A DNA stretch of 37,698 nucleotides from a virus. Below the pieces are notes generated by a model that saw nothing but the letters and a program-made list of their open reading frames with translations, made no database searches and was not told where the DNA came from. The stretch lies in the IMG/VR virus record IMGVR_UViG_3300045988_118522, positions 1 to 37,698 of that record. One strand, written 5' to 3'. This document shows positions 20,688-25,129 of the stretch, piece by piece. The translations under genes were made by a program, and so were the position numbers. Numbering within the stretch: position 1 is the stretch's first letter; each line of letters starts with the position of its first letter.

Positions 20688-20844
20688 GACATCTCTCCCT
20701 TATTCTTTCGTCCTCAAACCTGTCGTCGTCATAGTCCGACATCCGACGCTCCTCCGCATCTTCATCCGTCTCCTCCCTCGCCGGATCTCCAGCAGCTCGC
20801 ACGGAGTTGCGAAACAGATAATTAAGTATTGCCTTGTTGCTCAT
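20677..20844 (-). CDS. Small acidic hypothetical protein
   Basis: Start at MSNKAIL (20844), with an ATGA overlap onto the upstream stop. Confidence 0.4.
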   Translation of the reverse strand: MSNKAILNYLFRNSVRAAGDPAREETDEDAEERRMSDYDDDRFEDERIRERCHEF

Positions 20845-21128
20845 GATTGACCTCCTTTTATGCTTTTCAAAATCAAACCTGCGTTTTCCTTTTCTGCCGC
20901 CTTCAGGCAGTCCAGCCGGTGTCGGCTGTAAATCTTTTTGTTCCCGCGTCTTACGAATTCCACGAGCCCCCTGTCGAGTTTGTCGTTCAGCCATCTTGTT
21001 CCGTAGGCCTTCCGGGCCTCGTTCTCGCTCATCTCGTCTGCAACCGGATTGGTCCTTCTGAGAATCGCGTCGGCAATGAGTTGACTCACCTGCTCGTAGT
21101 CGCGAGCGATAGAATCAATGCTACTCAT
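20841..21128 (-). CDS. Putative DNA-binding early protein (excisionase/HTH-like)
   Basis: 95 aa; ARKAYGTRWLNDKLDRGLVEFVRRGNKKIYSRHRLD resembles a winged-helix Xis-type fold. Tentative. Confidence 0.45.
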   Translation of the reverse strand: MSSIDSIARDYEQVSQLIADAILRRTNPVADEMSENEARKAYGTRWLNDKLDRGLVEFVRRGNKKIYSRHRLDCLKAAEKENAGLILKSIKGGQS

Positions 21129-21312
21129 GACGTGTCACCTTATACTGTCCAACTCCGATTTTATTCACAGAATAGACCTGTCCATATTCTTCCTTCAGTC
21201 GCGAGCAGAGTGTCGCGAGGTATGTCCGTCTGGATTCTGCCCTGCTGAAAACAAGTTCCTCTCCGACGTTCATGGCTTTCAAAGCCCCGCTAATGTTTCT
21301 TTTTACTTCCAT
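21121..21312 (-). CDS. Hypothetical protein
   Basis: 63-aa ORF on the same strand. Confidence 0.5.
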   Translation of the reverse strand: MEVKRNISGALKAMNVGEELVFSRAESRRTYLATLCSRLKEEYGQVYSVNKIGVGQYKVTRHE

Positions 21313-21328
21313 CTTTTTCCTCCTGTTT

Positions 21329-21418
21329 TGGAGGGGAAGAGGGGTCTCGAACCCTCTCTTGCCGCAGCACCATTTCCGATTTTGGTCGCCAGCATCGCGC
21401 CACCCGCGAAACTTCCCC
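21329..21418 (-). tRNA. tRNA-like gene 1 (90 nt) with encoded CCA; anticodon arm non-canonical, identity undetermined
   Basis: Acceptor stem GGGGAAG/CTTCCCC, U8, D arm TCGC-GGGTGGC-GCGA, T arm GAGGG-TTCGAGA-CCCCT, then T-CCA. The central 35 nt fold as a 5-bp stem, an internal loop, a 4-bp stem and a 10-nt loop (AAAUCGGAAA). Confidence 0.5.
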
Positions 21419-21459
21419 TGACACTAAAACTATGTTAAACACACAAACGCATCGCTGCG

Positions 21460-21572
21460 TGGCCGGAGGGGAGAGGAATCGAACCTCCCTGTGGACCTGG
21501 GCTTCTCTGAGCGAGACCTTTAATGCTTCTCCGAGAACCCTGTGCGGCACTCCATATCCGCACCTTCCTCCG
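21460..21572 (-). tRNA. tRNA-like gene 2 (about 113 nt) with encoded CCA; elongated central arm, identity undetermined
   Basis: 3' end GGGAGG-TTCGATT-CCTCTC-CCCTCCG-G-CCA. The 5' strand is CGGAGGA, the D stem is 6 bp (GTGCGG/CCGCAC), and the central arm GGGTTCTC...GAGAAGCCC encloses 25 nt. Confidence 0.35.
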
Positions 21573-21703
21573 TTGTGACCGCCAAGCGCCTATCCAGGTC
21601 CATCCTGGCGGTCTAGCGCCGCGCCTGCTTTCGCGGCATAATCAGATAATAATAAATATGTTAGTTGACGCCCTTGCCTTCACAGGTTCGTGCGGCATTG
21701 TCA

Positions 21704-21880
21704 TTAGTCGTCTTCAATGATTTTCAATCCTGCGCCAAGACAGACGCACATCGCCAGGAATCTGGCAGCGTCACAATGCTGGCTGCCGAAAAACAGGTAA
21801 GCCATGCCGGCGGCGATGATTATGCCGCCCAAGACTTTTGATATGACGTCCTTCGACGCCGCTTTAGTTTCCTTTCTCAT
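21704..21880 (-). CDS. Small membrane protein, first gene of the leftward early operon
   Basis: Start set at MRKETK (21880), because the longer ORF begins upstream of the candidate promoter. Two hydrophobic segments. Confidence 0.5.
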   Translation of the reverse strand: MRKETKAASKDVISKVLGGIIIAAGMAYLFFGSQHCDAARFLAMCVCLGAGLKIIEDD

Positions 21881-22013: not shown

Positions 22014-22400
22014 ATGGTTGATTTACATGCTTTTAGAAAAGTAAATAAATTAAAACAAGAAGACTTGGCGAAGTATTTGAACACGACTCGCGCCTTTATT
22101 TCAATGGTTGAAACTGGCGCGAGTAAGTTACCCCCAGAAAAGTTAAGCTTACTTCTTAATAATACGCAGGGATGGGATACGAAGATGCTTGTCGATAACG
22201 GCGGCATTTACGCCGGAAATAACAACGCCGGCGATGTGAATGTACAGATAGGTCAGAACAGGGCGGGCAATCGCCCGAAAGATGGCGACGCAGTTACGCA
22301 GATGGCGGTGCTGGAGAAGGAGAACGAGATGCTGAGGGAACAGCTGAAGGACAAGGAGGCGCAGATAGATTTTCTCCGCGCGCTAGTGAAGAATAATTAA
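22014..22400 (+). CDS. CI-like repressor (XRE HTH N-terminus, coiled-coil C-terminus)
   Basis: KLKQEDLAKYLNTTRAFISMVETGASKLP is an HTH. The gene is divergent from the early operon. Confidence 0.8.
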   Translation: MVDLHAFRKVNKLKQEDLAKYLNTTRAFISMVETGASKLPPEKLSLLLNNTQGWDTKMLVDNGGIYAGNNNAGDVNVQIGQNRAGNRPKDGDAVTQMAVLEKENEMLREQLKDKEAQIDFLRALVKNN

Positions 22401-22800: not shown

Positions 22801-23286
22801 ATGGATGATTCAGATCATGACCATGACACGAAGTCTGGTATCAAGCGCGACGCGCGCGGTTACGAAAGTGGTGTAAAAATTTTTCTCGAAATGCTGGAGC
22901 GGTCGGAGGCTAGAATTGACAGAACCAGCCGAATTACCGAAGAACTGACAAGGGCGTGCAAATCGGTGGAGACCGCATACACCTCACACGTCAGCAGCCT
23001 GCAATTTTCCCGCGATACGTCGCAGAAGAACAACGCTAAACTCATTTCCCTGCTTGACAGGTTGACAAGTTCCTTCACGAAGGAAAGCGAGGACAAGCAG
23101 CGCAGAATCGAGATGCTGGAGGCGGACAAAAACGCGCTTCGGGCACAGCTTCACAGTGCGACCGACAGATATTGGAAGCTGCAGGAAGATTACAGAAGGC
23201 TGGCGGAAAGCCTAACTGGCAGCCGCAACACATACACTATCGGCTGCAACAACGGAGGCTCCGCGGACTCGAAATTGAAAGTATAA
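22801..23286 (+). CDS. Coiled-coil hypothetical protein
   Basis: 161 aa, rich in charged heptad-like sequence. Confidence 0.6.
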   Translation: MDDSDHDHDTKSGIKRDARGYESGVKIFLEMLERSEARIDRTSRITEELTRACKSVETAYTSHVSSLQFSRDTSQKNNAKLISLLDRLTSSFTKESEDKQRRIEMLEADKNALRAQLHSATDRYWKLQEDYRRLAESLTGSRNTYTIGCNNGGSADSKLKV

Positions 23287-23298
23287 AAGTATAATATT

Positions 23299-23877
23299 AT
23301 GCGAAAACTAATTATAACCCTATTCACTCTCCTTGCTTCACTTGCCTGCTTTGCGCAGAATGACAATGACTATAATTTTTCGGTTCATGAGGGCGAAATC
23401 ATTTGGCAGCGAGTATTCCAGGATTCCAGGCCTTTCGACGAACTCTGCGACGTTGCAAAAGCGTCAAAGGCGTTTGAAAACGTTGTCATAAACGGCAGTA
23501 AAATTGAAGGCTCGCTAACGCCTGAAAGGGCAGACATAAGAGGAGCAGGGTACAGCAATATGTCCGCGACCTTCCTCGTATCAAATTCGTACCTCGCTGC
23601 AAATTTTGTCTTGCAATGGAAGGAGGGCAGATACAGAGTGACGCTGATGGACATCAAATTTGTAGGCGCTGGCATGATGGGTATATCGATGAGTGGGATG
23701 TTTGCTTCAGGCATCGCGCCCGGAGAAAAAATAAACATCGAAACCTTCCTTCGCAAGAACGGCAAAATAAAGGAGACATTTTACTCTTCAGACACCGCCG
23801 AAATCCTTGATTACACCTTCACCTCGATTTTTATGCTGCAATCTAAAATGGATGTCGTGCTGGATTCGGATTTTTAG
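23299..23877 (+). CDS. Secreted protein or lipoprotein (possibly DUF4468-like)
   Basis: Signal peptide MRKLIITLFTLLASLACFAQ. The gene overlaps the convergent integrase stop by 4 nt. Confidence 0.65.
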   Translation: MRKLIITLFTLLASLACFAQNDNDYNFSVHEGEIIWQRVFQDSRPFDELCDVAKASKAFENVVINGSKIEGSLTPERADIRGAGYSNMSATFLVSNSYLAANFVLQWKEGRYRVTLMDIKFVGAGMMGISMSGMFASGIAPGEKINIETFLRKNGKIKETFYSSDTAEILDYTFTSIFMLQSKMDVVLDSDF

Positions 23878-25091
23878 ATGTTTGACCAGTCAAAGAGGCT
23901 CAGGACCTTCTCGTTTGCCTTCCACATGACCTCCCAGTCCTTTGCGATATAGATGTCAGTCACTCGCATGCTGCTGTCGACATGACAGAGACAGTCGTTA
24001 ATAACAGCCTTGTCTATGCCTGCCGAATATGCAAGCGTGGCCCAGGTGTGCCTTGCGCTGTAGAATGTCAGAGGCTCCGTAATCTTCATGATCTTACATG
24101 CCCTTCGTAAACCGGTCGAAAGTTCGGAGACGAAAATTGGCGATGTCGTCTTGAGGTGTATGCGGAGGGCTCGCTCGCCCGTCGGATCTCTCCATCTGTC
24201 AAAAAGCGGCTTGATTTCCTCTGGGATGCGCACGTGCATCTCTGCCTTGTCAGCCCTTGCCCGGCAGGTCTTGGTCCTGTTGTAGATGAGGATGCCATTT
24301 TGCGGCGGCAGACACGAGTGCAAGTCTATCGCGTTCATTCCCATCAGCGCAAATGAGAGCAGGAACATGTCTGCTGCCCTTATGTCAAGTTTCTTGACGA
24401 GCAGGCCGCGTCTGTCGATGAATGCCTGAATGGTCTCCCTGCTCACGTTCCTATGAGCCGCCTGGATTGTTCTTGCAGGGTGAAAATAGGCAAATGGATT
24501 TCTTATATAGATCTCGCCCGTCTCCTCGTTGTTGTATCTGAGCCGCGCCTGGGCATGGATGTGTCCGATACTTGCAGGGTAGGAACCGGTCGCGCGTGCA
24601 CCTCTGCCATGCTTGTTGACCAGCCAGGCCTCAAAGTTCCTCATCATTGAAGATGTTACTTCAGATATGTCCAGAGTGTCCCTTCCTACGAAGCTCTTTA
24701 GCGCATTGACCGCGTTGATATAATAGTTCTTCGTGTTTCTCGTAGTTTTTGAAGCAATTACCTCGTCTGCGAACTTGAAGAAGTCAAGTCTGAAGGACCC
24801 CTCCTGATTCGAGCTTATAAATCTGACGATGTCGTCGAGCGACATTTGCGTGACGGCAAAGGTGTCTATCCTCGCAGCTGCTGCCCTCATCTTTGCTATC
24901 AGCGCATCCGTCTTGTCGAGGACAGCCCTGTCACGTATATTTCCGGAGCGCGTGAGCTGTGACGAATCAACCGCAATGTTCGTCGAAATATACTTGACCT
25001 TCCGGTTCGCCGTGACGCGGATCCTGATAGTTTGAGTCCCGTCGCTCTTCCGGTATGGTGACAGAACAGCCTTGAAAGTGATTGTACCCAT
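23874..25091 (-). CDS. int: Tyrosine integrase (Bacteroides-type Arm-DNA-binding plus SAM-like N-terminal domains)
   Basis: C-terminal ARHTWAT...H...VTDIY catalytic pattern. The start is set at MGTITFKAV (25091). Confidence 0.9.
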   Translation of the reverse strand: MGTITFKAVLSPYRKSDGTQTIRIRVTANRKVKYISTNIAVDSSQLTRSGNIRDRAVLDKTDALIAKMRAAAARIDTFAVTQMSLDDIVRFISSNQEGSFRLDFFKFADEVIASKTTRNTKNYYINAVNALKSFVGRDTLDISEVTSSMMRNFEAWLVNKHGRGARATGSYPASIGHIHAQARLRYNNEETGEIYIRNPFAYFHPARTIQAAHRNVSRETIQAFIDRRGLLVKKLDIRAADMFLLSFALMGMNAIDLHSCLPPQNGILIYNRTKTCRARADKAEMHVRIPEEIKPLFDRWRDPTGERALRIHLKTTSPIFVSELSTGLRRACKIMKITEPLTFYSARHTWATLAYSAGIDKAVINDCLCHVDSSMRVTDIYIAKDWEVMWKANEKVLSLFDWSNI

Positions 25092-25099
25092 TTCCCTTT

Positions 25100-25118
25100 T
25101 TGTTAAACAATTTGTAAA
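25100..25118. repeat. 19-bp direct repeat, copy 1 (in the int 5' leader)
   Basis: TTGTTAAACAATTTGTAAA is identical to 25303..25321. Confidence 0.8.
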
Positions 25119-25129
25119 CAAATCAAGGG

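Follow-up and report, generated by a model that had tools for sequence, protein, structure and literature searches.

Two tRNA-shaped modules ahead of an early phage gene

The DNA analyzed here is a viral genome of 37,698 nt (IMG/VR record IMGVR_UViG_3300045988_118522), considered over its whole length and called the window below. Its minus strand carries two tRNA-shaped modules, E2 at 21572-21460 and E1 at 21418-21329, which occupy a gap of about 390 nt between the first early open reading frame (ORF; 21940-21704) and an ORF encoding a 63-aa protein (21312-21121). Together with accompanying hairpins (H0 to H3) they make up a multi-hairpin RNA of about 360 nt in the order H0, H1, H2, E2, H3, spacer, E1, and this RNA is the leader of an early lytic operon in a small clade of temperate siphophages. 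The two modules are built as follows.

E1, 21329..21418, minus strand: tRNA-shaped module, identified by covariation, an unedited MAFFT alignment and the covariance model R1
E1 acceptor stem, 21418-21412 / 21339-21333, minus strand: GGGGAAG/CUUCCCC, then UU
E1 D arm, 21409-21395, minus strand: UCGCG-GGUGG-CGCGA, with GG in the loop
E1 central arm, 21360..21394, minus strand: 35 nt with outer stem UGCUG/CGGCA, internal loop, inner stem ACCA/UGGU and the 10-nt loop AAAUCGGAAA
E1 T arm, 21356-21340, minus strand: GAGGG-UUCGAGA-CCCCU, with one G.U and one A.C pair and a textbook T loop, GGUUCGAGACC
E1 3' end, minus strand: discriminator U at 21332, CCA at 21331-21329
E2, 21460..21572, minus strand: tRNA-shaped module, with helices 100% paired in 8 sequences and called a tRNA in the graft test
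E2 acceptor stem, 21572-21567 / 21469-21464, minus strand: CGGAGG/CCUCCG
E2 D arm, 21562-21543, minus strand: (G)UGCGG-AUAUGGAGUG-CCGCA(C), with GG in the loop
E2 central region, 21490..21542, minus strand: 53 nt, a length-variable expansion and not a conserved arm
E2 T arm, 21489-21471, minus strand: GGGAGG-UUCGAUU-CCUCUC, with a textbook T loop, GGUUCGAUUCC
E2 3' end, minus strand: discriminator G at 21463, CCA at 21462-21460

The modules were compared across five diverged lineages, A to E, of which lineage A is the clade of the window. The minimum-energy fold calculated with RNAfold is a four-arm cloverleaf for E1 and for E2, and the fold energies are unremarkable (z = -1.15 and -0.88). The initial annotation of the window had described two minus-strand elements with acceptor, D and T arms and an encoded CCA, all of which are present in the window as described. 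It had also failed to fold either of them into a 5-bp stem with a 7-nt anticodon loop, and such a stem and loop with U33 are indeed absent in every lineage. With canonical tRNA (RF00005) and tRNA-Sec (RF01852) the modules share the 7-bp acceptor on a 5-6-bp T stem (12 bp), the 7-nt T loop of the form UUCGAxx (UUCGAGA / UUCGAUU; lineages D and E deviate), the GG of the D loop, a discriminator base and, in the window clade, the encoded CCA. They differ from both in the missing anticodon stem and loop and in scores far below the Rfam thresholds, and ARAGORN is silent on them. Unlike in canonical tRNA, neither the CCA nor the discriminator base is conserved. The CCA, given as a signature by the initial annotation, thus stands for the window but is not a conserved trait: it is encoded in lineage A (both modules) and in L081 (E1) only, and is replaced by CGA, CAA or CAG elsewhere.

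ARAGORN in its default, intron, transfer-messenger RNA (tmRNA) and mitochondrial modes gave nothing usable on the window and found 0 genes in all relatives. Rfam 15 holds no model for these modules; at gathering thresholds nothing was found in the window, and four relatives gave nothing at E <= 1. The single weak Rfam match was tRNA-Sec on E1 (18.6 bits vs a threshold of 47, E = 0.57), and the UCA loop of tRNA-Sec is missing. A tmRNA match covers merely a 15-nt stretch of T arm (9.3 bits), and a scan of 21200-21800 at E <= 10 yielded no matches beyond these weak tRNA-Sec and tmRNA ones. The G3.U70 pair of tmRNA is absent, position 3:70 being G-C in E2 and G-C or C-G in E1. ARAGORN and Rfam, both among the checks that the initial annotation had proposed for its hand-made folds, therefore return no ordinary cloverleaf.

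A covariance model built on E1 only (R1) recovers E1 from every lineage, at 91-108 bits for A-C, at 37.6 bits for D and at 26.5 bits for E. R1 also finds some E2 copies and cross-matches dozens of genuine phage tRNAs at unrelated loci, with 17-39 bits over the full length. In a graft test the central arm was swapped in silico for the anticodon arm of E. coli tRNA-Phe, and default ARAGORN then called E1 of lineages A-C and E2 of lineages A, B and D a tRNA. Controls were called in 0/300 cases when the 3' half or both halves had been shuffled and in 19-38% when only the 5' half had been shuffled. Because these 5'-half shuffles are still called, the test chiefly probes the T arm and the 3' strand of the acceptor stem. 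An earlier control, in which the 7-nt 3' strand of the acceptor was shuffled, was uninformative, and the half-molecule shuffles were used instead. The modules have tRNA bodies, and the central arm alone prevents their detection.

Covariation in five diverged lineages

Relatives were searched for with exact or gapped DNA patterns in IMG/VR, the JGI metagenomes and 185,579 species genomes. This yielded near-identical phages plus chance matches (IMG/VR L001-L003 and L031; JGI/ENA metagenomes L068-L080); the species genomes contained chance DNA matches only, and L038 and L039-L064 were examined and discarded as chance matches. The INPHARED phage collection contained no DNA match and no match to the 63-aa protein. 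Diverged copies of the RNA were reached only via homologues of the neighbouring 95-aa and 63-aa proteins. Homologues of the 95-aa protein with 53-71% identity led to diverged copies, all 7 clusters found in a word-indexed profile search for the 63-aa protein adjoin the RNA, and the syntenic 330-440-nt gap in the relatives' contigs holds diverged copies of both E1 and E2. The family is rare, comprising about 25 contigs, all of them metagenomic and from gut-type samples. The lineages and the lengths of their E2 central regions are as follows.

Lineage A, the window clade: 53-54 nt
Lineage B, L081-L084 and L093/L094: 14-15 nt, no arm
Lineage C, L085, L092 and L099: 90-92 nt, in the variant L099 30 nt
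Lineage D, L086-L088: 57-58 nt
Lineage E, L089: no central region

Nucleotide diversity in the window clade is low across the whole early region (pi 0.00-0.05; E1 pi 0-0.004). Since the flanking genes are equally conserved, conservation inside this clade was rejected as evidence, and covariation between the lineages was analyzed. For E1 the lineages were parsed by hand into acceptor, D, inner-stem and T segments before pairs were counted. In this E1 core, 94.6% of 168 cells are paired and 10 of the 21 pairs have changed on both sides, which 0/500 shuffles reached; slid registers pair in only 48-55%. Lineages A-C were also aligned with MAFFT without manual editing, this time counting the outer stem of the central arm as well, and the picture was similar (93.4% paired, 11/26 pairs doubly changed). 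The acceptor cells of E1 are 100% paired, and the T stem is paired save one conserved non-Watson-Crick position. For E2 together with H3, all of the 168 cells from 8 sequences are paired (100%) and 8/21 pairs are doubly changed, matched by 0/500 shuffles. The E2 acceptor/T stack of 6+6 bp is likewise 100% paired; the 13 bp counted in the initial annotation hold for the window clade, which has one extra C, while relatives have 12 bp. The minus strand is the RNA strand, because the G.U pairs would be A.C on the other strand. Furthermore, independent minimum-energy folds of copies from lineages B, D and E reproduce the cloverleaf.

Taken together, these results establish that selection keeps a tRNA body, that is, the 12-bp acceptor/T stack, the T loop and usually a D arm forming the tRNA elbow. 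The initial annotation had argued against simple decay, and this is borne out by compensatory changes in every helix of the tRNA body in five lineages whose neighbouring protein is only 33-54% identical. Decaying tRNA pseudogenes are thus a very improbable explanation, and we rate a tmRNA-like RNA equally low, given the missing G3.U70 pair and the lack of any Rfam (gathering threshold) or ARAGORN tmRNA call.

Single positions of E1 differ between the lineages. The second pair of the T stem (window 21345-21356 / 21340-21344) is non-Watson-Crick and conserved as such, being A.C in A and B and C.C in C; A-U is found solely in D and E, where it coincides with changed T and D loops. An eighth acceptor pair is possible in lineages A-C only.

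The central arm of E1 also shows covariation. Its inner stem covaries (A-U, G-C, G.U, C-G), and its outer stem is 85.7% paired with 3/5 pairs doubly changed in the unedited alignment of lineages A-C. The loop is A-rich and 9-10 nt long and contains no fixed triplet, its sequence differing among lineages (AAAUCGGAAA, AAAUCAGAGA, AAAGCGAAGA, AAUCGGAAA, AAUUCGAAAC). In L087 (456-529, lineage D), a 20-nt deletion between two ACGGG repeats removes the inner stem-loop and leaves a short hairpin, so that this copy is a natural 'cargo-less' E1.

Across the lineages the E1 arm is more stable than the central region of E2. RNAalifold returned no covarying consensus fold for the latter, which shares only the sequence motifs UUAAAGG, CCUCGC and GAAGCCCRGG. 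The minimum-energy fold of the lineage-E copy of E2 retains no more than an acceptor/T minihelix and a D hairpin of 2 bp, and this minihelix is the sole part of E2 present in every lineage. Covariation in the extended arm, which the initial annotation had suggested looking for, was therefore found in E1 (inner and outer stems) and not in E2. The same odd architecture that it saw in both elements, with exactly 25 nt enclosed by each outer stem, applies to the window clade; it is not a feature of the family, in which the E2 arm measures 14-92 nt or is absent.

The anticodon-position arm is thus a variable insert and the modules cannot decode; they are not decoders. The unusual decoding tRNAs considered in the initial annotation are contradicted by the lack of a 7-nt anticodon loop anywhere, by the changing E1 loop and by the E2 arm missing in lineages B and E. 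A more specific version, in which the modules would be true tRNAs that decode and have either an intron or an enlarged anticodon arm, comes from ARAGORN itself: with introns allowed and a threshold of 80% the program proposes for E2 a tRNA-Glu(CUC) with a 29-nt intron at 37/38. The segment resembling an intron base-pairs with the presumed anticodon loop, a trait of pre-tRNAs in archaea and eukaryotes. However, nothing is called at default thresholds, the anticodon changes between CUC and GUC among near-identical phages with uncompensated stem changes, and the arm has other lengths in lineages C and D. A bulge-helix-bulge intron is not retained either, since the arm that would contain it is absent or different in other lineages and the host is bacterial; about 30 window ORFs scanned include no splicing endonuclease or RNA ligase. 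We regard intron-containing tRNAs as extremely improbable.

The acceptor stem of E2 shows different degrees of constraint along its length. Pairs 1-3 (C1-G72, G2-C71, G3-C70; window 21570-21572 / 21464-21466) are invariant in all lineages, and pairs 4 and 5 covary. Most lineage-A copies have A73 as discriminator. We take C1-G72, the A73 discriminator and the GGAGGUUCGAUUCCUCU T arm to be presumably like those of bacterial tRNA-Pro, which would point to where E2 came from.

Comparison of the window with L001, L004, L031 and L069 revealed that the E2 central region has two alleles on its 5' side; the alleles differ at five positions exactly 3 nt apart (21541, 21538, 21535, 21532, 21529). In the window clade these differences fall on the third codon positions of a 27-codon minus-strand ORF that encodes MDLDRRLAVTTEEGADMECRTGFSEKH* and ends at a UAA in the E2 loop, a pattern that would be expected of a small leader peptide. 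However, the ORF is not conserved, as lineages B and E lack the arm and indels of 1-2 nt occur in C and D, and across the window clade about 5 synonymous changes stand against 7 non-synonymous ones (counted by eye). A leader peptide is consequently placed with the very improbable readings, beside decay and tmRNA.

Accompanying hairpins, neighbouring genes and host

Three or four further covarying hairpins accompany E1 and E2, two of them with GNRA loops.

H0, 21677..21686, minus strand: CCU-GUGA-AGG, a GNRA loop on a 3-bp stem; tentative 5' edge of the structured RNA
H1, 21618..21637, minus strand: GCCGCG-AAAGCAGG-CGCGGC, with the conserved loop motif AAGCAGG / ACAGGCAA
H2, 21577..21613, minus strand: 10-bp hairpin with the conserved loop motif CUGGAUAGGCG
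H3, 21448..21459, minus strand: CGCA-GCGA-UGCG directly after E2, with a GNRA tetraloop

The H1 stem has no unpaired position in six lineage representatives, and four of its positions each show 2-3 types of pair. The stem of H2 is wholly different among lineages yet always paired (GACCGCCAGG, CCUCCCGGG, CCUCCGG, CCCCUCCCC, CCUCCG), and in lineage C the hairpin has a different place, downstream of E2 and ahead of E1. The H3 loop is GCGA, GGGA, GAGA or GUGA in every lineage, and its loop-proximal pair covaries (A-U / G-C). An intrinsic terminator at H3 was rejected, since the U tract that follows is specific to the window clade and the GNRA loop is universal. The closing pair of H0 covaries as well (U-A, C-G, U-A and G-C in the window, L093, L085 and L089), and RNAfold gives an alternative local fold at this site; H0 (CCN-GUGA-NGG) is probably part of the RNA. 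As a whole, the 401-nt region is more stable than its shuffles (z = -3.04, 0/100).

Two further observations concern these hairpins. The surroundings of H0 (..GCAAGCCUGUGAAGGUGAGC..) are conserved at the nucleotide level between the window (21650-21700), L085 (1050-1090) and L086 (2620-2660). In lineages C and D this sequence is coding and gives the last residues of the upstream ORF (..SKPVKVS*), and in A, B and E it follows the stop codon; it may be left over from a gene that has been replaced, or be an RNA element overlapping coding sequence. In addition, CCUGG in the H2 loop (~21592-21596) is a candidate for long-range pairing with CCAGG in the variable region of E2 (~21495-21499). This pairing appears to covary: lineages A and D have CCUGG/CCAGG, L085 has CUGG/CCGG and L092 has CCGG/CCGG; the E2 partner is missing in lineage B.

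The neighbouring genes and the genes that mark the phage as temperate are the following.

Conserved 63-aa gene, 21121..21312, minus strand: starts 16 nt after E1
Conserved 95-aa gene, 20841..21128, minus strand: follows the 63-aa gene
Helix-turn-helix repressor gene, 22014-22400, plus strand
Integrase gene, 23874-25121, minus strand

In every case the RNA is flanked by the first early ORF and the 63-aa gene, and E1 ends 16-30 nt ahead of the start codon of the latter. The AlphaFold2 model of the 63-aa protein (pLDDT, the predicted local distance difference test score, 88) is an alpha-beta-alpha-beta-beta domain; its matches to SepF and KH domains are weak (E >= 0.03; KH E >= 0.2) and none is significant. 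An exhaustive profile search yielded about 90 representatives of this small-protein family. Three of these were looked up: the closest (L099) occurs with the RNA, L100 and L101/L102 occur without it. A 95-aa homologue with 53% identity (L090/L091) likewise has no RNA beside it. The notion of an obligate RNA-protein pair is weakened by these distant homologues of both proteins that occur without the RNA, and by the unmatched fold of the 63-aa protein. The RNA is an addition in one sub-clade and not an obligate partner of the 63-aa and 95-aa proteins.

These data bear on a cis-acting regulatory leader, in which the whole fold of about 360 nt would control the downstream genes and the tRNA-like parts would serve as building blocks. 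Such a leader might act by processive antitermination like the HK022 put RNA, or as a translational operator for the 63-aa protein or a host tRNA-binding protein. The position in the early operon directly upstream of a co-conserved small gene agrees with this, as do the covarying hairpins with conserved loops, two GNRA tetraloops typical of tertiary packing, the stability of the 401-nt region and the mobility of H2, since modules of one larger fold can move between lineages. However, the terminator-like U tract is confined to one clade, distant homologues show that the two proteins do not need the RNA, the resemblance of the 63-aa protein to KH and SepF is weak, and no reason is offered for a canonical 12-bp acceptor/T stack with its T loop. 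On balance we consider a regulatory leader unlikely.

The window is a complete-looking temperate siphophage genome. Its divergent early operon on the minus strand encodes Erf, a DUF6291 replication protein, a VRR-NUC protein, a methylase and an HNH protein, and the terminase, portal and capsid genes come after it. Pfam scans of 30 window ORFs revealed no tRNA-related enzymes. The prophage copy L004 adjoins an EngB gene. Because the sequence of this EngB is identical to one deposited as Bacteroides sp. CAG:770 / Candidatus Cryptobacteroides, the host is a gut Bacteroidales bacterium; hosts of these phages are Ca. Cryptobacteroides-like. An A-rich stretch before the start codon agrees with translation initiation in Bacteroidota. 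Ahead of the 63-aa gene, copies of the window clade carry AGGAGG (window 21313-21334), a strong Shine-Dalgarno-like motif that can pair with CCUCC at the 3' end of E1, as seen in the regional fold; the other lineages have merely A-rich leaders at this place.

In relatives of the window, a PIN (VapC-like) gene and a small partner gene are found on the repressor side of the immunity region (L081 3904-4502, L082 3-601, L086 430-1010, L093 1445-2396 and 4166-4764), and L093 additionally has two HicA toxin genes. At the matching place (22801-23877) the window carries an unrelated 161-aa coiled-coil ORF and a 192-aa ORF.

Such toxins are of interest with respect to tRNA decoys, RNAs that would bind and neutralise a tRNA-targeting factor such as an anticodon nuclease or a PIN/VapC-type toxin and act as competitive inhibitors early in infection. 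The complete tRNA body without a cleavable anticodon loop and the early position in the operon are compatible with a decoy, and the PIN and HicA genes of the relatives indicate that tRNA- or RNA-cleaving toxins circulate in this phage group. Anticodon nucleases, however, usually read the anticodon stem-loop, which is precisely the part that is missing or variable here. E2 has no central arm in two lineages, no defence or anti-defence gene is linked to the RNA, and neither PIN nor HicA was found among the ORFs scanned in the window phage. Decoys therefore appear quite unlikely to us.

The gapped T-loop pattern also retrieved a recurrent arrangement in unrelated large IMG/VR phage contigs (L011, L014, L015, L021, L024, L026, L028, L029, L032, L034), which is unconnected with E1 and E2. 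In these contigs an acceptor/T-arm end (..GGGGUUCGAUUCCCCUCUGCUCCA) comes after an AU-rich stretch that looks tmRNA-like, and a regular tRNA follows about 90 nt later.

Predicted processing by host tRNA enzymes and comparison with known RNAs

For recognition, RNase P, RNase Z and the CCA-adding enzyme need no more than the acceptor/T minihelix. Both modules have the structure of an RNase P / RNase Z substrate in all lineages, with about 12 bp in the acceptor/T minihelix, a T loop and flanks that are single-stranded. Because the part that is universally kept is the one that these enzymes recognise, we favour the view that the modules are pre-tRNA mimics, which host tRNA-maturation enzymes would cut out; the early transcript would thereby be punctuated, and stable small RNAs with a tRNA scaffold would result. 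The initial annotation had listed unusual decoding tRNAs, mimics or decoys, and processing substrates as speculative explanations; since the minihelix alone is invariant in E2, the last of these is preferred over the other two. The preference is a tentative one, to which we assign a probability of roughly 0.4.

According to this proposal, the modules would mimic pre-tRNAs so that host enzymes act on them, with RNase P cutting on the 5' side and RNase Z, or exonucleases, together with the CCA-adding enzyme acting on the 3' side. The early transcript would be cut at fixed points. These cuts would part the message of the upstream ORF, its 3' end capped by H1 and H2, from the downstream message, which would keep a short A-rich leader of the kind that is well translated in Bacteroidota. 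They would also free two nuclease-resistant small RNAs with tRNA bodies. In E1, the replaced anticodon arm would be a cargo hairpin displaying the semi-conserved A-rich loop.

Several points weigh against this proposal. Cleavage of the modules is purely what we infer, and the nucleotide at position -1 is A, C or G but never the U preferred by RNase P. The tRNA likeness is weaker in two lineages: E1 of D and E deviates from the tRNA consensus in the T loop (UUGAACC / UCGAACU) and the D loop (GAUUUG), and it is not called a tRNA in the graft test. The covariation is based on about 10 distinct sequences, the main E1 and E2 alignments were built by hand around the structure, with the MAFFT set of lineages A-C alone being unedited, and the low local diversity everywhere in the window clade makes conservation there uninformative. 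In addition, a mere processing signal would need neither the conserved D arm nor the loop motifs of H1 and H2, the two GNRA hairpins or the semi-conserved loop of E1. These extras suggest a further function or a compact tertiary fold.

The leader might also represent a phage RNA class of a new type, whose natural tRNA scaffolds would make host tRNA enzymes excise and stabilise small effector RNAs; alternatively, the whole RNA would be a compact, ornate fold with a biochemical role of its own. In the effector version the tRNA body would be a delivery vehicle, and the replaced anticodon arm and the GNRA hairpins would carry the activity, for example an early block of a tRNA-directed immune nuclease or of another tRNA-binding host factor. 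We judge this class to be unlikely.

Compared with known systems, the modules most resemble natural tRNA scaffolds or viral tRNA-like elements, by analogy and with no ancestry in common with described ones. Engineered tRNA scaffold chimeras, which carry an insert in place of the anticodon stem-loop, undergo processing and stabilisation by the tRNA machinery of E. coli (PMC3753655). Like these, E1 keeps the acceptor, T and D arms and has a hairpin at the anticodon stem-loop as insertion site; in contrast to the man-made scaffolds it is natural, its cargo is short (~25 nt), and E2 is cargo-less in some lineages. RNase P is known to process the C4 RNA of phages P1 and P7, tmRNA and polycistronic mRNAs (PMC11143913). 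C4 is likewise a small structured RNA from a regulatory operon of temperate phages, and its excision by RNase P has been seen, whereas for E1 and E2 it is predicted. C4 differs in that it pairs with sites in its own operon; it is unrelated in sequence, and complements of AAAUCGGAAA and AGCAUUAAAGG occur in the window at chance level (outside the elements, 3 mismatched matches vs 4.2 expected for AAAUCGGAAA and 11 vs 10.1 expected for AGCAUUAAAGG), so that a C4-type antisense action finds no target above chance level there.

In the TMERs of the herpesvirus MHV68, tRNA-like elements are parted from downstream hairpins by tRNase Z (PMC4838037). The pair of E2 and H3 is likewise a virus-encoded, non-decoding tRNA-like element with a hairpin directly behind it, and other viral and cellular tRNA-like elements, including mascRNA, can be grouped with the TMERs as likenesses. 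The TMERs differ in being eukaryotic Pol III units that yield miRNAs, and the tRNA-like structures of plant viruses such as turnip yellow mosaic virus (TYMV TLS) differ in forming genome 3' ends with pseudoknotted acceptors; neither shares ancestry with the phage RNA. GOLLD and ROOL are phage-borne multi-hairpin RNAs of several hundred nucleotides that often lie beside tRNAs or contain them. In the bacterial Y RNA YrlA, the arm that contains the two ends of the molecule is the one opposite the acceptor-like stem, whereas the ends of the phage modules form the acceptor stem. GOLLD, ROOL and YrlA gave no Rfam match at any threshold tried in the window, in 21200-21800 or in four relatives, and no Ro60/Rsr gene was found among the window ORFs scanned. 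YrlA is described as having a tRNA-like domain (PMC4201824).

Mimicry of tRNA is already familiar from eukaryotic and plant viruses and a few bacterial RNAs; a description of tandem non-decoding tRNA-shaped modules in a phage early leader was not found in the literature searched. Such elements are wholly overlooked by tRNA finders, and the 'intergenic gaps' of phages may conceal more of them. If decoys were the right explanation, the modules would be an RNA-based counter-defence in phages of gut Bacteroidales. If, instead, the modules are processed as we propose, the phage would exploit host tRNA maturation to punctuate its mRNA and to make stable small RNAs, and the principle of the engineered tRNA scaffold would have been reached by evolution.

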